Assembly: GCA_016703535.1 (NCBI GenBank)
Contig: JADJBV010000001.1
Span: 6,382,270 to 6,446,269, forward strand
Source: Deltaproteobacteria bacterium
Lineage (GTDB): Bacteria > Myxococcota > Kuafuiibacteriia > Kuafuiibacteriales > Kuafuiibacteriaceae
Length of the DNA: 64,000 nt
Reading direction: 5' to 3'
Position 1 is the first letter of the stretch, and each line of letters opens with the position of its first letter. Below are positions 20,326 to 30,166 of this stretch, piece by piece. The position numbers were made by a program, and so were the translations under genes. A model generated the notes under the pieces. The model did not search any database and was not told the DNA's origin. It was given only the letters and a program-made list of their open reading frames with translations.

Positions 20326-20727
20326 ATGAACGCGATCTACATGGCCCACTCCGGACTCCGCTACCTCGTCCTCCTGTCGGGGTTCATCACCCTGGCCCTG
20401 CTGTTGATCGGCCAACTCCAAGGCAAGGCCTTCGCGCCCATTCATCGGATCTCCAGCACCGCCTACGCGGGCCTGCTCCACCTGCAGGTCGTCCTGGGCA
20501 TCGTCTTGGTCGGGATGGGCCGCTTCTACCCGGCGCTGATCGGCCACCTGGCGATGATGTTGGCCGCCGCGGTCGGGCTCCAGTTCGCCCTCACCTTCAA
20601 CAAGAAGCGCGGGACCCCCAACCTCAAGCTCCCGCTGATCGCGGTCGCGGTGTCGCTGGTGTTGATCGCCGCGGGCGTGATGGCGATCGGCCGGGGCCTC
20701 TTTCAGAGCATCGCCTTCTCTTCTTGA
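20326..20727 (+). CDS. Small integral membrane protein (4 predicted TM), 133 aa
   Basis: Four hydrophobic helices; AT-richer codons than surrounding artefact ORFs. Confidence 0.55.
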   Translation: MNAIYMAHSGLRYLVLLSGFITLALLLIGQLQGKAFAPIHRISSTAYAGLLHLQVVLGIVLVGMGRFYPALIGHLAMMLAAAVGLQFALTFNKKRGTPNLKLPLIAVAVSLVLIAAGVMAIGRGLFQSIAFSS

Positions 20728-20777
20728 GGCCCGTGGGCTGCATTGACTCCGCCCAGGTAGTCCCTCAAGAAGTGGGG

Positions 20778-21890
20778 GTGCCCTCCCGCACCCTGCTGCT
20801 CCTCATCGTGTTGACGGTCGCCGGGCTGGCGGCGTGCGAAGACCCGGCCAGCGACGCGGGGCCTGACGCCGGCTTCGTCGACGCGGCACCGCTGGACGCC
20901 ACACCCGCGGATCGGGGGGTCCAGGACGCGGCGCCCGACTCAGGCGCGGACTCGGGGCCCAGTGACTCGGGGATCTTGGACGCCGATCCGGCCGACGCCG
21001 ATCCGGCCGACGCAGATCAGGCCGACGCCGATCCGACCGACGTTGATCCGGCCGACGTTGATCCCACGGACGCCGACCCTCCGGACACCGGCGCCCCCGA
21101 CACCGGCCTCAGGGACGACGCGGGTTGTCCGTTCCCCAGCGGCGCGATCGACGATCCCACGGCCGTCGGTCTGCCCTCGGGTGTGGTGTTGTGGCTCCGA
21201 GGCGAACGTGGCGTCGCTACCTTGCCCGACGGGATCTCAGTGTGTCGCTGGGAGGACGTCAGCGGCAACGGCCGACACTTCTTGCCCGCCACCGCCACCT
21301 TGCCCAGCTACCAAGCGGCCGCGGTCGGCGGCCGCCCGGCGGTGGTCTTCGTGACCAACTCGCGGCTCGAGCGGCCCGACGTGCTCGGCCTGGGCGCGAC
21401 CCAAGGCCGGGCCATCGCCGTTCGCTCCCAGATCGTGGACACCACCCGTCGTTTTGGATCGCTGCTGCAAGGCAACCGTGGCAACAACTGGGAGTACCTG
21501 GAGCTGGAGCAGAACACCTTCAACACCGTCGGCAGTCGGGTCGGCGTCTACTTGACGGCCAACGCCTACGACTCGGACGTGGCCACCTCCACCGCCGCCC
21601 GCACCCACGTCTACTCGATCACCACCATGGTCACCGGCACCACCCTCCCCGGCGCCTTGTCCTACGCGGTCGACGGCGTGGAGCGCACCTTGACCCGCAC
21701 CCCCGGCGGCAACGGCCCCAGCGGCCCGGGCAACAACCTGGTCTGGGACTTCAGCGGCGCCAACTTCACCTCGATCGGTGAGACTGCAACCCCCGGCTTC
21801 ACCGGCGGCGCCATCGGCGAAGTGTTGGTGTTCGACCACCCGCTGACCCCGCAGGAGCGAGCGGCCGTCGAAGCCCACCTGGGCCGCTGA
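20778..21890 (+). CDS. Lipoprotein with (D-P-A-D-A)n low-complexity linker and C-terminal concanavalin/LamG-like domain
   Basis: GTG 20778, lipobox LTVAGLAAC; DADPADADPADADQADADPTDVDPADVDPTDADPPD; C-terminus GEVLVFDHPLT. Confidence 0.5.
   Translation: MPSRTLLLLIVLTVAGLAACEDPASDAGPDAGFVDAAPLDATPADRGVQDAAPDSGADSGPSDSGILDADPADADPADADQADADPTDVDPADVDPTDADPPDTGAPDTGLRDDAGCPFPSGAIDDPTAVGLPSGVVLWLRGERGVATLPDGISVCRWEDVSGNGRHFLPATATLPSYQAAAVGGRPAVVFVTNSRLERPDVLGLGATQGRAIAVRSQIVDTTRRFGSLLQGNRGNNWEYLELEQNTFNTVGSRVGVYLTANAYDSDVATSTAARTHVYSITTMVTGTTLPGALSYAVDGVERTLTRTPGGNGPSGPGNNLVWDFSGANFTSIGETATPGFTGGAIGEVLVFDHPLTPQERAAVEAHLGR
20960..21075 (+). repeat. Tandem 15-bp-unit repeat (gatccggccgacgcc and variants) encoding (DPADA)n
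   Basis: Direct reading of nucleotides 20990-21070. Confidence 0.7.
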
Positions 21891-21962
21891 GCGCATCCGC
21901 TGGATCGACTGACGCGTGGGCCGGGAAATCTGCGCCTGGGCCGAGGCCGGACACGTAGAGCC

Positions 21963-23120
21963 ATGGGCCCGATGCTGTCGAACTTCAAAGGCGCTTGGTC
22001 CCTGCTTCCCCTGTTTTGGGCGGCCTGCACCGCGGACGCGGGCCTGCTCCAGGGCGGTGAGTCCCCAGACCAGGGGGCGGGGCGCGGCGGGGGTACCCAA
22101 GGGACCGATGGCGGCGCCGATCCGGACCTCGGGATCCCCTTCGACGCGGGCCTCGTGGTGGACGCCGGCGCGATAGCGGACGCCGGCTCACCCGCGGAGG
22201 TGGAGCAGGCCTTGGTGCGCGCCGAGTGCCGCTACGCCGCGAGGTGCCTTCGGCGCTTCTACTTCGACGCCTTCGGCGCCGATCCCGGCTGCCTCGAGTC
22301 GGGCGCTTACGGGTTGGGCCGAAGCGCCCGGGCGCGGATCGAGGCGGGTCGAGCGGTGGTCGATCCCGAGCAGCTGGCCGCCTGCCTCGCGGCGATGGAG
22401 TCCAGCGGCTGCGAAGAGACCACTCGAGCCCAAGCCTGCGATCGAGCCCTGGTGGGGACCGTGGCCCAAGGTGAAGGTTGCCTGAACTCGGCCGAGTGCG
22501 GCCCGGGCCTGCGGTGCTTCGGGATCAACTGCGGGACCTGCCAGCCGATGCTCCCCACCGGCGCTTCCTGCGACGCCAACGCGGGCGGCTGTGAAGGTTA
22601 TTGTTTCACCCAGATCGCGGGCACCCCCGGCTCCTGTCTGCCCAACCACCTGCTCGAGGGTGAGTTGTGCAGCGGGTCGTTCTCGGACTGCGAACCCCCG
22701 CTCCGCTGCGTTCGGATCAACGAAGACGAACGTCGTTGTCAGGCCGCGCCCGTGCCCGGAGCCGCCTGCAGCGACCTGGGCGGCGGCGCGAGCTGCGACT
22801 ACGGCCACGCCACCTGCAACAACGGCGTCTGCGAATGGCTGGTCTTCGTCGATCCCGGCGAACCCTGTGACCAGGATCGGCTCTGCCGCGGCAGCTGCTT
22901 CCAGGGCCTGTGCCGCGCCTACCCTCAGCTCGGTGAGGCATGCCCGGCCTTCTCCGGTGCCTGCGCGGGCGCCCTGGGCCGGTGCGGCAGCGACGGGATC
23001 TGCCGCCCCCGCCCCAAGGATGGCGAGCCCTGCCAAGGTTACGACAGCTGCGAACGTGGCCTGCTATGCGGCATCGACCCGCCCGTCTGCACTTCTCGCC
23101 CGTGGGAGACCTGCAACTGA
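21963..23120 (+). CDS. Cys-rich lipoprotein (about 40 Cys), hypothetical, 385 aa
   Basis: Lipobox LPLFWAACTA; regular Cys spacing; antisense ORF 22188..23036 rejected. Confidence 0.55.
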   Translation: MGPMLSNFKGAWSLLPLFWAACTADAGLLQGGESPDQGAGRGGGTQGTDGGADPDLGIPFDAGLVVDAGAIADAGSPAEVEQALVRAECRYAARCLRRFYFDAFGADPGCLESGAYGLGRSARARIEAGRAVVDPEQLAACLAAMESSGCEETTRAQACDRALVGTVAQGEGCLNSAECGPGLRCFGINCGTCQPMLPTGASCDANAGGCEGYCFTQIAGTPGSCLPNHLLEGELCSGSFSDCEPPLRCVRINEDERRCQAAPVPGAACSDLGGGASCDYGHATCNNGVCEWLVFVDPGEPCDQDRLCRGSCFQGLCRAYPQLGEACPAFSGACAGALGRCGSDGICRPRPKDGEPCQGYDSCERGLLCGIDPPVCTSRPWETCN

Positions 23121-23143
23121 ACTTGCACTCCCTCGGACGCGCA

Positions 23144-23794
23144 TCAGCGTAGCGCCGGTCCTTGACCTTCCGCGCCCTCCGGGCCCTGCTTCTTGCGGTC
23201 GCCGAACAACATGGCTCGGATGCCGGTGTGAGGCTCGGAGACCGTGATGGCCAGGTACACGTGGACGATGAGGAACATCGTGAAGACATAGGCCGTCACC
23301 GAGTGCCCGATCGCGACCGGGAGGAGCCCCGGCAGGCTGGCGACCTTCTCGGGAACCGATAACGGAAAGAGCAAGAGCAGGCCCGTGCCGATCTGCACCG
23401 GGAACATGAGGAAAACCGCCCCGATGTAAGAGACCTGCTGCAGCGGGTTGAAGCGACTGACGACCGTCGCCGGAAATGGGTGGTGCCCGCCCTGGAAGAT
23501 GTCCGAGAGATAATAACGAACCTGCCTGGCCGCGCGCCGAAAGAACGGGCGCCGGGGGACGTACTGCCTCCAGTGTCCCGTCCAGACCATACTCGCCAGG
23601 TAGAAGACATAGGCGAGTGTGCAGGCCACCCCCGTGGCGTTGTGACCCAGGACCGCCCAGCGAAAGTAGCCGCCGGCCCCGGCCTCGCCGTAGTGCAGCG
23701 CGAAGCCCGTCGCTACCAGGGCCAGAAACAGGAACGCGTTCACCCAGTGCCAGGCCCGCAGCCATCCTGGGAACATCGGCGTCGGCTTCTTCAT
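23144..23794 (-). CDS. Membrane b-type cytochrome subunit (Ni/Fe-hydrogenase/formate dehydrogenase-gamma/PhsC-like), 216 aa
   Basis: MFPGWLRAWHWVNAFLFLALVATGFALH; four TM with conserved His; ATGA overlap with the upstream multiheme gene. Confidence 0.7.
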   Translation of the reverse strand: MKKPTPMFPGWLRAWHWVNAFLFLALVATGFALHYGEAGAGGYFRWAVLGHNATGVACTLAYVFYLASMVWTGHWRQYVPRRPFFRRAARQVRYYLSDIFQGGHHPFPATVVSRFNPLQQVSYIGAVFLMFPVQIGTGLLLLFPLSVPEKVASLPGLLPVAIGHSVTAYVFTMFLIVHVYLAITVSEPHTGIRAMLFGDRKKQGPEGAEGQGPALR

Positions 23795-24762
23795 GGGTGA
23801 GGACCTCCCGGGCCGATTCCGCGCTTCCTACGCACCAAGGCGGCCGCGGTGCGCAACAGCGCGTGACCCAAGATGCCCAGGAAGGTCAGCGTGGCGAGCG
23901 ACATGCCTATCAAGTCGAGGGTCTGATTTCGTGTCGCGCCGATGACATAGGCCTCGTTCAAGATCGCCGCGTTCATGAACCCATACTTCTCTTGCTCGAC
24001 CGCGTGCGCGTAGCGATAGGTCTTGAACTTCAGCACCGACGCCTCTTGATGGCAGGACTCGCACTTCGAGAGCGCTTGGGCCTTGGGCAGGATACGATGG
24101 CTCCCCACGACGCCCTCGGAGTTCGTGTGGCAGTCGACGCAGCGGACCGAACGCCAGTGGAGGTCGCGGTTGGGCAGCCACTGATGGGCCGCGTCAAGAT
24201 CGGGGGGCGCGCGATGGGCGAAGGTCCGGAACTCGAGCTCAGAGCCGTGGCAGCGCAGGCATGCCTGGTTGTGCTCGAGGGACTCGTCGGGAGTCATGCC
24301 GAAACGGATCCGGTGGGGATCGTGGCACCGGGCGCAGGTGAACTGCACGCTCTTGGTGGAGTGTACGCTCTGATCGAACTCACGGATGATCCGGACGAGG
24401 TCGACCTTGTGGCCCCGTTCGGAGCCGGCGGGTGCGGGGGCCCGAGCCTCGAACTCAGCGAGCACGCGCTCGTCCAGGTGACAGTGCGCGCAGTCCACGG
24501 GACGAAGGTCCTCGTCCTCCTTGTCATGCGCGATGCTGACGTCCTCCACGTCGCCGTGACACGAGATGCAGCCATGGAGGGCATGGACGGAGGCCCGGTA
24601 GGCGACCAGATCGATCTTGGGCGCCCGCGCGTCGCCCGTGCCCGCGTGGCAGATGAAGCACTCGGAATCGCGCGCCGTCCTCGGGATCGGGTTGTCCGCG
24701 ACCGCAGAGGTGGGCCACCCCAGCCCGGCCGCGAGCAGCCCGAGGATCGTTATGGTTCTCAT
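23791..24762 (-). CDS. Heptaheme cytochrome c with signal peptide and C-terminal TM anchor
   Basis: Seven CxxCH motifs (CFICH, CISCH, CAHCH, CARCH, CLRCH, CVDCH, CESCH). ATG 24760-24762 with GGAGG 6 nt upstream. ATGA overlap with the 22-heme gene. Confidence 0.8.
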   Translation of the reverse strand: MRTITILGLLAAGLGWPTSAVADNPIPRTARDSECFICHAGTGDARAPKIDLVAYRASVHALHGCISCHGDVEDVSIAHDKEDEDLRPVDCAHCHLDERVLAEFEARAPAPAGSERGHKVDLVRIIREFDQSVHSTKSVQFTCARCHDPHRIRFGMTPDESLEHNQACLRCHGSELEFRTFAHRAPPDLDAAHQWLPNRDLHWRSVRCVDCHTNSEGVVGSHRILPKAQALSKCESCHQEASVLKFKTYRYAHAVEQEKYGFMNAAILNEAYVIGATRNQTLDLIGMSLATLTFLGILGHALLRTAAALVRRKRGIGPGGPHP

Positions 24763-26270
24763 CGACCGCCTCCGCCGCTCGTGAAGGGGTGGCAGCCGTG
24801 ACAGGTCTGCGCCCCTGGCTCGTGCGTCCGTTGCGGCTCGTGGCACGCCCCCACGCAGCTGGCGCGGTCAAAGGCCGTAGCCTGGTCGTGGAAGCGATGG
24901 CAGTCCGCACAGACCCCGTGCTTAGGGATCATGTGGAGGGACGGCAGTGGCGGAGCATGACACTTCGTGCAGGGCTGCGGAGCCGCCGGGCCCTTGGGGC
25001 CGTGCGCTCGATGGCAGTCCGCGCAGGCCCGGGCGGGCTCGCTGTGTGGCCCAAGGCCCTGCTGAGCGTGGCATTCGACGCAGGTCTTCTTTAGCGCACC
25101 GTCGTGGGTCTGGTGGCAGTCCGCGCAGACGTCGTGGCCACGAGGCGCGCTGGTGTGTTCGGTCGGATGACACTTGGCGCAGGCTGGCGGCCGCAGGGCC
25201 GGGTCGTGGGCCTGGAGGTGGCAGGTGGTGCAGCGCTCGTGCCCCTTCACCGTCTTCACGTGCACGGGGTCGAGGACCGAAGGCGCAGCCGAAAGTGCAT
25301 GGCAGCGAACACACAGATCCTCAGGGGGCACCGGAGTCCGGATCTTTCCCGGCGCGTGGCAGCTCGCGCAGGCGACACGACGGCCATGGAACGCGGTGTC
25401 TGAAGCGGCTTGGAGGTGGCAACTCGAGCAGGGCGCTGATCGTACGGTGCCGCCGCCCAGATGGATATTCTGGTGGGCGTCGTGGCAGTCCTTGCACGTC
25501 CCCGGCTGGGTGGCGCTGAGCACCTCCCGGGCGTGCCCAACCTGGTGGCAGCTTTCGCACGGACGAACCCCGGAGCCGGCCCCGTGGGGCTCGTGGCAGC
25601 TCACGCAGCGCGTGTGCCCGGGCAGCCTGAGCTTCTGCGCTTCGTGGCAGCCCTGGCAGCGCTCGGCCGCGTCCTCCTTCGTTCGGTGGCCGACGTGGCA
25701 CTCGATACACTGCGCCGGACCTTTCAACGCCGAGTTGTGCGCAGTGAAGCTGCTCTCGTGGCACCCGGCGCAGTCCCCGGGGCGCACCGCGGATTCGCCG
25801 TGCGGCGTATGGCACGCCTTGCAGGCCTCGGCCGCATGAACCGTGATGAGCGGCGCCTTGCTCGCCCAATCTTGTGCGGGAGCGCCCCGAGTCTGCTGCC
25901 CCTCTGCGGTGTGACAGCGAAGACAGCCCCACGGTGCCGCGGTCGTCGCGAGGAAGTCATGGCAGGTCAGACACTCTTTTGCGTCATCGCTGGCGGCGGC
26001 CCGGTGGACCGCCGACGCGCTCTTCTCGTGACAGCCGAGGCAACGCTGAGTCTTGGAGAGCACCTTGGCGCCCTCGATCCGGTGGCAGTCCGCGCAGACC
26101 GCCGGCTTCTCGGCGTTCAGGTGAGCCAGGTGGAGCGCACTCTGCAGGGCCTTGGCTTGCTCGGGGGTCGGCTCTTGGCCGGCGTCAGGGCTCGTCGCCG
26201 GGCGTTCCTGTGGGGTGCAGCTCCAGCCGAGACCCGCGAACAGGCAAGCGACGGCGAGCGATCTCAGCAT
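24759..26270 (-). CDS. Multiheme cytochrome c lipoprotein, 22 CxxCH + 1 CxxxCH motifs, 503 aa
   Basis: Lipobox VACLFAGLGWSC; heme motifs counted directly in the translation. Confidence 0.85.
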   Translation of the reverse strand: MLRSLAVACLFAGLGWSCTPQERPATSPDAGQEPTPEQAKALQSALHLAHLNAEKPAVCADCHRIEGAKVLSKTQRCLGCHEKSASAVHRAAASDDAKECLTCHDFLATTAAPWGCLRCHTAEGQQTRGAPAQDWASKAPLITVHAAEACKACHTPHGESAVRPGDCAGCHESSFTAHNSALKGPAQCIECHVGHRTKEDAAERCQGCHEAQKLRLPGHTRCVSCHEPHGAGSGVRPCESCHQVGHAREVLSATQPGTCKDCHDAHQNIHLGGGTVRSAPCSSCHLQAASDTAFHGRRVACASCHAPGKIRTPVPPEDLCVRCHALSAAPSVLDPVHVKTVKGHERCTTCHLQAHDPALRPPACAKCHPTEHTSAPRGHDVCADCHQTHDGALKKTCVECHAQQGLGPHSEPARACADCHRAHGPKGPAAPQPCTKCHAPPLPSLHMIPKHGVCADCHRFHDQATAFDRASCVGACHEPQRTHEPGAQTCHGCHPFTSGGGGR

Positions 26271-26438
26271 CGGCTGACGGCGACGCTACTTCGGCGCAGA
26301 GGGAATTCAAAACGCGGTCGTCGTGACCGCGGAGTAACCTACCAAGAGGTAACAATTTGCGGGGCTGCGCCTGTGGGGGTCGAGCGGAAGTATAGGGTCC
26401 AAACCCTACAGCAGACGAACCTGGGCATTTAGGGCAGC
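26271..26438. promoter_or_regulatory. Putative promoter region of the cytochrome operon (AT-richer: gaattcaaaacgcgg..., ggtaacaatttgcgg)
   Basis: Non-coding, locally lower GC, upstream of the first operon gene. Confidence 0.3.
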
Positions 26439-26636
26439 CTACTGGCGCGGGCGACGTCCGAGCAGCAGAGCAAACACGTCGGCCGAGCCGCCTTCGCTGA
26501 GGCCCGCCCGACCCCTCCACGCCGTCGGGTTCTCAAACGTCCCGAAGATCAGATCCCAAAGCGCGATGTCGCCGAAGTTGAGCGGCGCCCGATCACGATC
26601 GTGATGCAGCGCGTGGCTCTCGAGCGGATGGGTCAT
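26439..26636 (-). pseudogene. C-terminal remnant (65 aa) of a fatty-acid hydroxylase/sterol desaturase superfamily gene
   Basis: HALHHDRDRAPLNFGDIALWDLIFGT is the last His box plus the NFG...WD.LFGT tail of that family. The N-terminal about 200 aa are missing. The upstream neighbour ends 30 nt away. Confidence 0.55.
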
Positions 26637-26667
26637 GAATCGCAGCTATCGCTACCATCGACCCGGC

Positions 26668-27969
26668 CTATGGCCGAGCAGGCGCCCAGGCGAGGCCGTA
26701 AGGCAGGGCACCGTGGACCCCAAAGGCCGCCCGCACCCGCTGGTTGCCGTCCAAAAACAGGACCCGGTGGGCCTCGTCGAGCTCGGGCCACTCCATGCGT
26801 TCGAGCTGGTTGTCCAACACGTTCGGCGGAACGGCGTCGGTCCGAGCCCGGTTGCGTCGGTGGTAGTCGGCGAGGTCCAGGTGAAAGACCACCAAGGTGA
26901 CCAAAGTGCCGTAGTCGAAGCCCAAACCAGCGACCCGGGTCCGGAAGTCCTGGCGCAAGCTGGTGGCGTCCCACACCACCGGCCGTTGTTTTCGCAAGCT
27001 GGCTTTCAATCGCTCTCTGCCTTCGGCGAGGACCCGATCGTTGGCGCCCTGATCACCTCGGTCCGAGCCGAGTTCTTCCCGCAGATCGTCGAGAGAGAGG
27101 TGATCGAAGCCGGCCAGGTGTTTTTGCGCGAAGGTGGTCTTGCCCGAGCCGCTGGGGCCAACGGTGATCACCAGATCCGAACGGGCCTCTCGGGCCTGAA
27201 AACTCCGGGCCACCGCCTCTTCTAGGCTGTGGATCTCACCCCGCTCTAAGCTGCGCCGGGCCTCGGACAGCGCAAAATCGATCACTTGATCGCCGTGACC
27301 CGCGAGGGACTCCACCAGCCGCGCCCGCCAGCTCGGGTCCTGCTCGCCGTGCCGAACGAACGCGCCGTAGTCTTCGGCGAAGAGCCGATACAGATCGATC
27401 TTCTCGATGGCCTCGGCCCGATCCCGGCAGGTCCGGCCCCGCATGTCCGCCTGCTCGACCCAATAGAGGAGCTCCGGATCGGCCAGGCGGCTGACCCGCT
27501 GATAGGCCCCGGCGCTCCGCTCCTTCACCACCAAAAACTTGGGCTCGTGGTGATGGCCGACCAAACCCAACAACACCTCCAGGGACGGATACGGCAACTC
27601 CTCCAACAACCGCGGCGCCAAATAGGAACGCCCCGCGGCCTCGTGACCCCGGGCGACGATGCGCTCCACCCCCTTCAGCTCCTGGGGTCGGGTGCAGATC
27701 GGCTTGGCGATGTCGTGGAGCAGGGCCCCCAACACCAAGAGCAATCGGCCCTCCCCTTCCAGGTGGGCGGCCGGCCCCGCGAGGAGTTGGTAGGCCTCGT
27801 CCATCACCATCTGGGTGTGGATGTGCACGTCGCCTTCGGCGTGCCACTCCGGATCTTGCGGCGTCTCTCGAAAGCGCCGCAACAACGGCAGCCGATCGCC
27901 CAGGGCCTCGACGCACTCGTCGAGGTTCGGAGACGCACCCCGACGAATCTCATCAAAGAAGGTCTTCAT
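26668..27969 (-). CDS. HD-domain phosphohydrolase fused to a P-loop (polynucleotide-kinase-like) NTPase, 433 aa
   Basis: HD motif LLHDIAKP; Walker A VITVGPSGSGKTTF; start ATG 27967-27969 in ATGA overlap with the RNA ligase stop. Confidence 0.65.
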   Translation of the reverse strand: MKTFFDEIRRGASPNLDECVEALGDRLPLLRRFRETPQDPEWHAEGDVHIHTQMVMDEAYQLLAGPAAHLEGEGRLLLVLGALLHDIAKPICTRPQELKGVERIVARGHEAAGRSYLAPRLLEELPYPSLEVLLGLVGHHHEPKFLVVKERSAGAYQRVSRLADPELLYWVEQADMRGRTCRDRAEAIEKIDLYRLFAEDYGAFVRHGEQDPSWRARLVESLAGHGDQVIDFALSEARRSLERGEIHSLEEAVARSFQAREARSDLVITVGPSGSGKTTFAQKHLAGFDHLSLDDLREELGSDRGDQGANDRVLAEGRERLKASLRKQRPVVWDATSLRQDFRTRVAGLGFDYGTLVTLVVFHLDLADYHRRNRARTDAVPPNVLDNQLERMEWPELDEAHRVLFLDGNQRVRAAFGVHGALPYGLAWAPARP

Positions 27970-28610
27970 GACTTCTTCCCGGGTTCTCGCAGGCCGTTGG
28001 GCGTCACCACCCCGTGCATCCAATGATCGTCGGTCTGAACGTGACCGCGCCGCACCCACTTGGCCACGTGCTCCGAAAAGCGCGCGTACGGGAAGGCGCC
28101 GGCGCTGCGCACCACGTACCCTTCACAACGTTGGAGATCGAGCTTGAGGCTCCGGAGCCGGGCGTCGTCGTAGGGCCCTTCGTAGAGCGTCGGCACCAAC
28201 TCGAGGCCCAGCCGCATGGCCCAAGCCTTGGTCTCGGCCCACGACAAACAAGTGTTGGTCTCATCCCAGATCGAAAAGACAAAGAAGTAGCTGGCCAGAT
28301 CTTCGTACGCCACCGAATGCCGCGCGTAGAGATTTTCGCCGCAGACCCGAAACCCCGCCGGGATCTGGTAGCCGATCTCGCCCTGCAGCCGCTTCAGCCA
28401 ATCCCGGGACGGGTGGTGACGGCCATCCAGCGAGCGGGCGTGGAGCCCATCTTGGTAGAGGGTCGAGTTTTCGCCGTCGAGCTTTTCGGTGACCACCACC
28501 GGGGCCGACGACAAAGCCGCCGGGACCTCGGTGACCAGATCGTCGCTGCTGACCCCGGGAGACCAGGGCAGATGGGGCGTCCTAGGATACTTGAAGCGTT
28601 GGGTCGCCAT
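27966..28610 (-). CDS. ATP-dependent RNA ligase (PF09414 RNA_ligase family), 214 aa
   Basis: MATQRFKYPRTPHLPW...VVVTEKLDGENSTLY (nucleotidyltransferase motif I KxDG). ATG 28608-28610. Confidence 0.7.
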   Translation of the reverse strand: MATQRFKYPRTPHLPWSPGVSSDDLVTEVPAALSSAPVVVTEKLDGENSTLYQDGLHARSLDGRHHPSRDWLKRLQGEIGYQIPAGFRVCGENLYARHSVAYEDLASYFFVFSIWDETNTCLSWAETKAWAMRLGLELVPTLYEGPYDDARLRSLKLDLQRCEGYVVRSAGAFPYARFSEHVAKWVRRGHVQTDDHWMHGVVTPNGLREPGKKS

Positions 28611-28616
28611 GACCCA

Positions 28617-28623
28617 CCTCCTT
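28617..28623 (-). promoter_or_regulatory. Ribosome-binding site AAGGAGG of the RNA ligase gene
   Basis: Plus-strand cctcctt, 6 nt upstream of ATG. Confidence 0.6.
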
Positions 28624-28699
28624 TGGCGGAGCCCAAGGCCCACGCCATCCCGCGATAGAGCATCGAGCGCAGAGCGGCTCGAAGGAACCGGGACCGAGG

Positions 28700-29450
28700 A
28701 GATTACATGGCGGAGGCTCGGAGAGATAAATAGGCTAAGCCAAGGCTCCGAAGGAGGTCAACCAGAGTTGCAGGACTTCAAGCTTCAGCGGACCAGAGAC
28801 CAACGACGACGATGGGATAGCAACCGGGTGGACCAGATCCGAGCGCTGGAAACGGCCAAACCCCCGCAGATCCCGGTGGCCACCAACACCCGCCCTTCGA
28901 CCGGGCAAGGAGCCGCGCCTGCTGCCCGCGGAAGATGGCTTCCACGAAGACCCGCGCCATCGCCGCCAGGCCGTCTGCACGGACCGCCAACAACCCGACC
29001 AACTCCGAAGGCGGAGACAGAACGTACTGCCGAATCGGAACATCGGGGAACACACGCTCCACGAAGTGCGTCGCGACGTCGTCCATCCACCGCGCGCCGC
29101 AGCTCGGGCAGAGGCCGCGCCCTTTGGTCGCTCCGGCCATCCTGGCCTCTCGCGACACTTCCCGCGTCCTGTGGGTCGCACGAAAACGCCAGCGCCCGCT
29201 CCACTTGGCAGTCCGGGCAGCGCAGCCTGACGAAGCCCGCCTCGGGGACACCGCACACCAGGAACCGCTCCACTGCCCGGCCCACGAACTTGGGGATGGG
29301 GACCCCGGCCTCCTTGCTCTGCGCCACTAGCGCCGGCCACCAGCGCGTCACCAGTCGGTGCAGCACGCCCGAGCGCGGATCGCGAGCGGAGTAGCGCCGA
29401 GGACGATCCACGCCAGGCCCGTAGGCCAGCCGCGTGCCCAGCCCCGGTGC
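28700..29450 (-). mobile_element. IS91-family (Y2 rolling-circle) transposase remnant, copy 1: N-terminal Zn-finger part only, degraded
   Basis: ORF 28785..29411 carries FLVCGVPEAGFVRLRCPDCQVERALAFSC (Zn_Tnp_IS91-like) then loses the frame. It shares a near-identical segment with copy 2. Confidence 0.55.
28938..29100. repeat. Direct repeat A (about 165 bp), near-identical to 39548-39715
   Basis: cttcgaccgggcaagg.gccgcgc.tgctgcccgcggaagatggcttc.acgaagacccgcgccatcgcc...aacaacccgaccaactccgaaggcgg.gacagaacgtact seen in both copies. Confidence 0.75.
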
Positions 29451-29803: not shown

Positions 29804-30166
29804 TTAGGGGACGAAGACCTCGACCCGATCGACCGCGCCGAAGGCCATCACCGAGGCTCCGCCCGGCACGTAGATCCGATCACCAATCGCCGCGGCGCCT
29901 GTCCCGTGCCGGCCGGTGGTCATCGGGCTCAAGCTTGACCACCGCTCGGTCTCAAAGCTCCAAGCCTCGACCGCGTCAAAGACCGCGCTGGCGGCGCCGG
30001 TGTTGCCTTCGCCGCCGAAGACGTAGAGCGCCTCGTTGAGGATCGCGGCGGCGGCGCCTCCTCGAGAGGTCGGCATCGGGGGCCCGGCGCTCCAGGTACC
30101 GGCGGTGGGATCGTAGAGGTCGAGCTGAGCGGTGTGCCCCGTGATGGGTCTCCTTCGGAAAAGGTT
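29804..30166 (-). pseudogene. 3' fragment (about 115 codons) of a Kelch-repeat protein gene truncated at its 5' side
   Basis: Frame reads ...RRRPITGHTAQLDLYDPTAGTWSAGPPMPTSRGGAAAAILNEALYVFGG...GDRIYVPGG. An in-frame stop is at 30167-30169, exactly where GC content drops. Confidence 0.6.

Follow-up and report, generated by a model that had tools for sequence, protein, structure and literature searches.

A LigB(DdrP)/HD-Pnk gene pair in a Myxococcota-like genome, probably a translationally coupled operon for the repair of broken nucleic-acid ends

The 64,000-nucleotide (nt) stretch of contig JADJBV010000001.1 analyzed here (the window, a term that always denotes this whole stretch) comes from a high-GC, Myxococcota-like bacterium and carries on its minus strand a gene for a short ligase that overlaps the start of a gene for a fusion protein, HD-Pnk, which joins an HD phosphoesterase domain to a P-loop kinase domain. 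What does this pair of genes do, on which nucleic acid does it act, and was it inserted into its present site? The original prediction, made from the DNA letters alone, described an RNA-repair-like cassette, and its building blocks, namely the PF09414 ligase with its KxDG motif and AAGGAGG ribosome-binding site, the ATGA overlap, and the HD/kinase fusion of 433 amino acids (aa), were all found in place (Table 1). The analysis indicates that the pair is in all probability a translationally coupled two-gene LigB(DdrP)/HD-Pnk operon that repairs broken nucleic-acid ends. It may act on RNA, on DNA, or on both.

The ligase starts with MATQRFKYPRTPHLPWSPG and includes the sequence VVVTEKLDGEN, as read from the translated open reading frame (ORF). 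It matches the Pfam family PF09414 (RNA_ligase) with an E value of 4e-33 and a score of 115 bits, the cut-off being 27, and aligns without gaps to the Deinococcus radiodurans protein DR_B0100 (55% identity, E = 3e-85), so that its Lys43 pairs with Lys40 of that protein. Two alignments, one of 20 and one of 28 sequences, showed no variation at the residues of nucleotidyltransferase motifs I, III, IV, and V listed in Table 1, among them the motif I lysine on which the assignment had hinged. The AF2 model (pLDDT 89.8) forms one compact nucleotidyltransferase domain and, as described for DR_B0100, lacks an OB fold and any other domain for binding nucleic acids. In the Protein Data Bank (PDB), its fold is matched best by the adenylyltransferase domains found in NgrRnl (Rnl5), T4 Rnl2, and archaeal Rnl3, with DNA ligases ranked below them; these matches cover only the nucleotidyltransferase core, at TM-scores of ~0.5 and 15 to 19% identity. 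By sequence, no PDB chain matched the ligase at E < 0.01, so this ligase clade has no solved representative. The DraRnl model TIGR02306 gave only 19.7 bits, below its cut-off of 151. Longer, GTG-initiated forms exist for both ORFs of the cassette; the ATG starts are favored because they fit the lengths and N termini of the homologues.

The fusion protein matches both of the expected Pfam families, HD and AAA_33, and aligns over its full length (aa 1 to 405) to DR_B0098 of D. radiodurans (38% identity, E = 3e-64), its H85/D86 pairing with H81/D82 and its R372 with R371. In alignments of 13 and 26 HD-Pnk sequences, H51, H85, D86, H140, and D175 of the HD domain and D294, R297, and R376 of the kinase domain were invariant, and R372 was at least 90% conserved; H109 did not vary in the smaller alignment and reached at least 90% conservation in the larger one. 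The kinase domain thereby has the expected catalytic Asp and the arginines of the RNxxR motif. The AF2 model has a pLDDT of 93.8. Its kinase domain resembles that of CthPnk (PDB 4gp7) both by sequence (E = 1.8e-9) and by fold (TM-score of up to 0.79 on the target), and the top 17 matches of the fold search were all polynucleotide kinases (CthPnk, mammalian PNKP, fungal Trl1, and T4 Pnk). Against the bacterial Pnkp model TIGR04075, the kinase part alone gave a match, of 57.9 bits with a cut-off of 750. The housekeeping alternative, a CCA-adding enzyme, was rejected: model TIGR02692 scored 16.9 bits, with a cut-off of 438.8, and covered only the HD segment of aa 41 to 118. PADLOC models searched with the ligase and HD-Pnk returned nothing beyond a weak similarity of the HD domain to Cas3/Cas10. 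The Pfam and tblastn matches of the ligase, HD-Pnk, and the adjoining desaturase ORF (see below) are far above chance.

The two genes form a recurrent pair. At each of the 13 related loci compared (L001 to L005, L024 from Persicimonas, L025 from Waterburya, L026 from Hahella, L038, L039, L040, L041/L042, and L043), a PF09414 ligase of 206 to 216 aa is encoded directly 5' of HD-Pnk; this sample spans Myxococcota-like bacteria, Persicimonas, cyanobacteria, Hahella, and Deinococcus. The gene ends overlap or abut (-8 to +3 nt) at L001, L002, L003, L005, L024, L026, L038, L040, L041, and L043. In each of the relatives with 64 to 67% identity and readable flanks (L002, L003, L041, and L043), the two-gene form lies in different surroundings, which together with the window makes five neighborhoods. 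The ATGA overlap in the window, as read from the sequence, implies that the ligase and HD-Pnk would be translationally coupled.

Both families are widespread. Among the proteins scored, 593 were HD-Pnk homologues at E < 1e-5, including members from Myxococcota, cyanobacteria, Hahella, Persicimonas, and Enhygromyxa. The ligase family comprises 2,083 representative clusters at E < 1e-3 (479 at E < 1e-30) and, at E < 1e-5, 2,412 clusters formed at 90% identity. Ligase homologues are also found on plasmids or chromids of Deinococcus, Actinomycetota, Bacillus cereus, Pseudomonas, Vibrio, and Rhodobacterales. A tblastn search against plasmids located an HD-Pnk homologue on the D. radiodurans megaplasmid MP1, in a region annotated as encoding an "RNA ligase family protein" (210 aa), a TIGR02452 protein, and an "AAA family ATPase" (413 aa). 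Their location and the order in which they follow one another identify the three genes as DR_B0100, DR_B0099, and DR_B0098; the gene for the Rnl5 ligase DR_B0094 is nearby.

Several variations on this theme were observed. In Hahella ganghwensis (L026:7277-8050) and on two metagenomic or metagenome-assembled contigs (L038:6314-7063 and L040:6301-6918), a second, divergent PF09414 ligase is encoded directly 3' of HD-Pnk and overlaps it. This second ligase is 22 to 29% identical to the first and has retained the YPRT.H N terminus, motifs IV and V, and the lysine of motif I; the ligase-HD-Pnk-ligase order is not mentioned in the citing papers on HD-Pnk that were consulted. The window has no second ligase, its place being taken by the desaturase remnant. 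Full-length ligase homologues with 49 to 53% identity are encoded by the jumbo phages XacN1 (AP018399.1), RsoM2USA (MG752970.1), and SCTP-2 (MF360958.1), and homologues in the same range by Caulobacter phages and uncultured phages of 485 to 735 kb. No healing enzyme was found beside the phage ligase in the two phages inspected, XacN1 and Phosso; an uncultured phage of 462 kb (LR756500.1) encodes a full-length distant HD-Pnk homologue (23% identity). Many of the top-scoring representatives of the ligase family are proteins of 300 to 2,800 aa that extend beyond the ligase domain at the N- or C-terminal side, including a recurrent class of ~340 to 365 aa with the ligase at residues ~130 to 345; these long proteins may be eukaryotic or multidomain bacterial ones.

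Table 1. Features of the cassette and of its surroundings, in window coordinates
Feature	Position	Strand	Details
Ligase ORF, 214 aa, ATG start	27966-28610	minus	LigB/DdrP (DR_B0100) type, stand-alone adenylyltransferase domain
Shine-Dalgarno sequence AAGGAGG	28617-28623	minus	6 nt 5' of the ligase ATG; read from the sequence
Ligase motif I, K43-L-D45-G46-E47	K43 codon 28482-28484	minus	K43, D45, G46, and E47 invariant (20- and 28-sequence alignments)
Ligase R59			Invariant (same alignments)
Ligase motif III, E92			Invariant (same alignments)
Ligase motif IV, E163-G164-x-x-x-R168			E163, G164, and R168 invariant (same alignments)
Ligase motif V, K184-x-x-R187			K184 and R187 invariant (same alignments)
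ATGA overlap, ligase TGA/HD-Pnk ATG	27966-27969	minus	"tcat" on the plus strand; read from the sequence
HD-Pnk ORF, HD and P-loop kinase fusion, 433 aa	26668-27969	minus	LLHDIAKP (H85, D86), GPSGSGKTT (K277)
HD phosphoesterase domain, N-terminal, ~aa 36-179	27433-27864	minus	Pfam HD, E = 3.7e-7, aa 61-145
Putative HD metal ligands H51, H85-D86, H109, H140, D175	H85-D86 codons 27712-27717	minus
P-loop polynucleotide 5'-OH kinase domain, C-terminal, ~aa 264-405	26755-27180	minus	AAA_33, E = 1.5e-26, aa 266-393
Walker A, G271-P-S-G-S-G-K277-T	K277 codon 27139-27141	minus	G271, S273, G274, G276, and K277 invariant
65-aa ORF, 3' remnant of a sterol desaturase/fatty-acid hydroxylase gene	26439-26636	minus	Pfam and tblastn
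Terminator-like GC-rich hairpin and T-run, 3' of the remnant	26313-26331	minus	Consensus match; count of such sites not above shuffled expectation
IS91-type transposase N terminus, frameshifted, truncated	28778-29411	minus	Zn_Tnp_IS91, E = 1.8e-5; abuts the 5' leader of the cassette
Methyltransf_34 protein (PF11312)	30134-31222	opposite to cassette	No HIT domain; nearest methyltransferase, in the variable island
DUF1848 protein, DRT-associated model	31198-32142		Island
ThiC-like radical SAM protein	32671-33747		Island
ThsA-like SIR2/SLOG protein	33723-35132		Island
PDC-M19B	35217-36050		Island
PDC-M19A with DUF488	36057-37304		Island

Experimental work on the orthologues indicates what the two proteins might do. 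In a 2007 study, DR_B0098 was characterized as a 5'-polynucleotide kinase that acts on a 5'-OH DNA 25-mer and whose activity is strongly lowered by the R371K substitution. DR_B0100, which is made up solely of the adenylation domain, forms an AMP adduct that depends on K40, and it does not seal standard ends. A review of Deinococcus reports that the operon is induced by radiation and that a DR_B0098 mutant is as radiation sensitive as a deletion of the whole operon; DR_B0098, given the name HD-Pnk, is reported to contribute to resistance to ionizing radiation and mitomycin C (Schmier & Shuman 2018). For Runella slithyformis, an HD-Pnk with an N-terminal HD 2',3'-phosphoesterase and a C-terminal 5'-OH kinase has been described, the start of its gene being overlapped by the 3' end of an ORF for a putative ATP-dependent ligase directly 5' of it (Munir & Shuman 2017, J Bacteriol 199:e00739-16; Munir et al. 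2018, RNA 24:1144). This ligase formed an enzyme-AMP intermediate but ligated none of the 3'-OH/5'-PO4 substrates tried. The Runella cluster consists of four genes, which include those for the RNA 2'-phosphotransferase Tpt1 and an MTase-HIT fusion. HD-Pnk enzymes are described as acting on RNA 2',3'-cyclic phosphate ends, and one cited title refers to a "DNA/RNA end-healing enzyme."

By analogy with these orthologues, the cassette would be expected to act in three steps. The transition-metal center of the HD domain (H51, H85-D86, H109, H140, and D175) most likely hydrolyzes a 2',3'-cyclic phosphate, 3'-phosphate, or 2'-phosphate to leave a 3'-OH. HD-Pnk reportedly prefers nickel, copper, and cobalt as metals. 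The P-loop kinase (K277, D294, R372, and R376) would then move the gamma phosphate of a nucleoside triphosphate (NTP) to a 5'-OH, a reaction demonstrated for both DR_B0098 and the Runella HD-Pnk. The least certain step is the last one, in which the ligase, presumably after self-adenylylation, would seal the ends via Lys43-AMP. The prediction of a heal-and-seal pair is supported by homology to studied enzymes, DR_B0098 for HD-Pnk and DR_B0100 for the ligase; the sealing step itself is unproven, given that the Runella and Deinococcus ligases fail on standard ends.

Several points weigh against the assignment as a repair operon. The pair is not always adjacent: the two genes are ~8 kb apart in Vibrio and ~62 kb apart in Pseudomonas amygdali. 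No ligase orthologue is known to seal standard 3'-OH/5'-PO4 DNA or RNA by itself, and in one report of DNA ligation by DR_B0100, cited in the Deinococcus review, the reaction required DR_B0098 and PprA. The 2007 study was unable to attribute the phosphatase activity of DR_B0098 to its HD motif. The gene for poly(ADP-ribose) glycohydrolase (PARG) that is part of the D. radiodurans operon is absent from the window cassette, where the overlapping ORFs leave no room for it, and neither Tpt1 nor MTase-HIT is encoded next to the cassette, although the search for Tpt1 did not extend to the entire window. In the absence of these Runella and Deinococcus accessory genes, the pathway may differ in detail. 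Finally, the activities of both window proteins are predictions from their orthologues. The ligase probably needs a partner protein or a nonstandard substrate.

The closest counterpart is the D. radiodurans ligB operon, in which the ligase gene likewise comes first, the ligase is an adenylation domain of similar size (210 to 214 aa), and the HD motif and kinase arginine align. It differs in that a PARG/macro-domain gene separates the pair there, whereas the two genes overlap at ATGA here, and in its location on a megaplasmid, the window locus being apparently chromosomal. The Runella locus, compared through its published description, shares the HD and kinase architecture and the overlapping upstream ligase ORF but contains the Tpt1 and MTase-HIT genes, neither of which flanks the window cassette. 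The Pnkp/Hen1 system of Clostridium thermocellum follows the same heal-and-seal logic and has a homologous kinase domain (CthPnk); there, however, kinase, metallophosphoesterase, and ligase form a single polypeptide that works with Hen1, in place of the HD phosphoesterase and separate PF09414 ligase found here, and no Hen1 gene was found beside the cassette. T4 Pnkp with Rnl1/Rnl2 and the Trl1 of fungi and plants likewise mend breaks with 2',3'-cyclic phosphate and 5'-OH ends by bringing together a phosphoesterase for the 3' end, a kinase for the 5' end, and an ATP-dependent ligase, T4 Rnl2 resembling the window ligase in its nucleotidyltransferase fold and T4 Pnk and Trl1 resembling HD-Pnk in the kinase fold. 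Their phosphoesterases are of other types, a DxDxT acylphosphatase in T4 and a 2H cyclic phosphodiesterase in Trl1, and Rnl1 and Rnl2 carry extra C-terminal domains that the window ligase, at 15 to 19% identity, lacks. The nick-sealing Rnl5 ligases (DraRnl/NgrRnl) include the top fold match of the nucleotidyltransferase domain, NgrRnl, but are proteins of ~340 aa with an N-terminal OB domain. The HD domain had been singled out as an unusual substitute for the common phosphatases; it is indeed present, but the HD-Pnk family, including its overlapping upstream ligase, had already been described.

Within the general assignment to end repair, three narrower functions can be considered. The first is dedicated RNA repair. 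Ribotoxins or anticodon nucleases that cleave tRNA or rRNA leave 2',3'-cyclic phosphate and 5'-OH ends, and the cassette would restore the cut RNA as T4 Pnkp/Rnl1 or bacterial Pnkp/Hen1 do; its place on the border of a defense island would then reflect a role in conflicts. This is a serious possibility, albeit one that falls short of being probable. It is consistent with the fold of the ligase, which is nearest to the RNA ligases (Rnl5, Rnl2, and Rnl3) and only then to DNA ligases, with the name of its Pfam family, with the 49 to 53% identical ligases of jumbo phages, with the Tpt1 linkage in Runella and the described action of HD-Pnk on cyclic phosphate ends of RNA, and with the ThsA-like, PDC-M19, and DUF1848 genes of the adjoining island. 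However, the cassette lies outside that variable island, has core-like codon composition, and is present in both strains compared, and the PADLOC similarity is limited to the weak Cas3/Cas10 match. Furthermore, sealing of RNA has been seen with neither the Runella nor the Deinococcus ligase, and the two phages inspected carry their ligase without an adjacent healing enzyme. Of the "RNA-repair-like" label, the healing and sealing cassette holds by homology, whereas the RNA part is not established, the Deinococcus operon being radiation induced and linked to DNA-damage resistance.

That operon is the model for the second possibility, dedicated repair of DNA breaks, in which HD-Pnk would clean the 3'-phosphate and 5'-OH ends that radiation or oxidative damage leaves behind, for the ligase to seal with a helper protein. 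The radiation induction and the DNA-damage phenotypes of the Deinococcus mutants, the phosphorylation of a DNA 25-mer by DR_B0098, the reported DNA ligase activity of DR_B0100 together with DR_B0098 and PprA, and the "DNA/RNA" in the family title, as cited, all point in this direction. The window ligase, however, has neither an OB fold nor a DNA-binding domain, and its fold ranks with the RNA ligases. According to the Deinococcus review, some Deinococcus species have LigB without PprA and others PprA without LigB, so a PprA-dependent mechanism is not general, and reports on the phenotype of DR_B0100 mutants conflict. On balance, an exclusive role in DNA repair appears somewhat unlikely.

The third possibility, that the ligase does not seal at all but adenylylates a 5'-phosphate or some other acceptor (an App cap, a 2'-PO4, or an ADP-ribosylated end) that HD-Pnk prepares, would fit the formation of enzyme-AMP without product on standard substrates by two independent orthologues, the reduction of the protein to a nucleotidyltransferase domain, the linkage of its relatives to genes for Tpt1, HIT, and PARG, which deal with 2'-phosphate, AMP-blocked, and ADP-ribose-blocked ends, respectively, and the second ligase paralogue of three related operons, which hints at a division of labor; it is nonetheless improbable, given that motifs III, IV, and V, which serve steps 2 and 3 of ligation, are strictly conserved and that coupling to an enzyme yielding ligatable 3'-OH/5'-PO4 ends most simply means sealing. 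Equally hard to favor is the broader proposal that this ligase clade and HD-Pnk perform a still undescribed kind of end joining or end modification, with the island-edge position indicating a role in conflicts with phages or toxins. Candidate chemistries for it may include joining that requires a 2'-phosphate, processing of ADP-ribose- or AMP-blocked ends, and dependence on the second ligase paralogue. The coupled LigB(DdrP)/HD-Pnk repair operon, acting on RNA, DNA, or both, thus remains the preferred assignment.

The third question, whether the cassette was inserted, turns on its borders. The truncated desaturase gene proposed to lie downstream is real. The 65-aa ORF matches only the last 28 positions of the Pfam family FA_hydroxylase (E = 8.5e-4, under the gathering score), but in tblastn against plasmids it aligns to residues 179 to 231 of a 239-aa sterol desaturase family protein from Legionella fallonii and to residues 184 to 244 of a 265-aa one from Chondrinema litorale. 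When both full-length proteins were searched back against the window, this fragment alone matched (E = 2e-10 and 5e-9), so that no N-terminal part of a desaturase was found anywhere in the 64 kb. A word-indexed homologue search with the 65-aa ORF gave no matches. The ORF is a true gene remnant because it keeps the last histidine box, HALHH, while the first two boxes are gone and there is no N-terminal part. The HD-Pnk stop codon and the start of desaturase homology, at position 26639, are 29 nt apart, so the breakpoint is no more than ~30 nt away from where the cassette ends. Further downstream, the hairpin at 26313-26331 is a possible end of the transcript. Directly 3' of the remnant, positions 23064-26270 (minus strand) encode multiheme c-type cytochromes of 503 aa and 351 aa, both rich in CxxCH motifs; the cluster, which is kept in a sister strain, also includes a gene for a cytochrome b of the Ni_hydr_CYTB type.

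Insertion is thus suggested by the desaturase gene cut so close to the HD-Pnk stop codon, by the remnants of mobile-element genes that abut the cassette on its 5' side, and by the unrelated contexts in which relatives carry the pair. The idea is limited by several findings. The GC content at third codon positions (GC3) of the cassette is 0.81 to 0.82, equal to that of most core genes sampled (0.81 to 0.88), so the cassette is compositionally native to the genome. In addition, the cassette and the desaturase remnant are common to both strains, whereas the island beyond 28.89 kb differs between them. Searches for direct or inverted repeats flanking the cassette yielded only short, chance-level matches. 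No empty site was found: a scan with the first cytochrome (503 aa) retrieved one usable relative, the more distant metagenomic L030 (61% identity), which is uninformative because it has neither the cassette nor a desaturase gene upstream, and a closer one, L029 (86% identity), was too short for the comparison. Most likely, an old recombination event brought the cassette in and disrupted the desaturase gene beyond its 3' end.

Further evidence for insertion comes from the 5' side of the cassette. The sister-strain contig (L001) is 97.5% identical to the window over positions 20439-28891 in blastn, including the desaturase remnant, and collinearity ends at ~28891-28912, some 281 nt 5' of the ligase ATG. 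Identity declines toward this junction: the remnant is 99% identical, HD-Pnk 97.5%, the ligase 95%, and the leader 91%. In the window, a truncated and frameshifted IS91-type transposase gene reaches the junction; in the sister strain, a truncated tyrosine recombinase gene (L001:1752-2672) enters the same shared tail, so that two different mobile-element genes are cut at one point ~280 nt 5' of the ligase. The junction resembles a hot spot of recombination where an island that varies between strains begins. Four ligase leaders compared for a conserved operator or promoter showed no meaningful alignment, and no sigma-70-like site was seen upstream of the window ligase.

The island itself stands out by its composition: between ~30 and 38.5 kb, GC content falls to 0.56 to 0.62 and GC3 to 0.61 to 0.71, compared to a GC content of 0.68 to 0.71 in the flanks. 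The sister strain has an SLFN_AlbA_2 gene in its place. No tRNA genes or Rfam elements were detected in the window. The cassette is most likely separate from, and older than, this strain-variable defense island. For that reason, the proposal that positions 26.6 to 40.4 kb form one composite accessory region was only partly right, as it lumps a shared, core-like cassette with a low-GC variable island that starts beyond ~28.89 kb; similarly, the suggestion that the cassette is itself an insertion gains from the cut desaturase gene and the mobile-element remnants and loses from the core-like GC3 and the presence of the cassette in the sister strain.

For Deinococcus and Runella, work from 2007 to 2018 had already described the operon of a ligase and HD-Pnk, the overlap of its ORFs, and an HD domain in the role of 3'-end phosphoesterase; what the window adds is one more example, clean and reduced to two genes, in a Myxococcota-like genome. 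On which substrate this widespread clade of ligases naturally acts is a family-level question that has already been stated in the literature, and the window makes it no more tractable. Likewise, an undescribed chemistry, if true, would be a property of the whole ligase family, with its ~2,000 clusters from many phyla, and not of this window. What the cassette does contribute, through the five neighborhoods of the pair and through the truncated gene and mobile-element remnants at its own borders, is additional evidence that the ligase and HD-Pnk travel together as an autonomous module.

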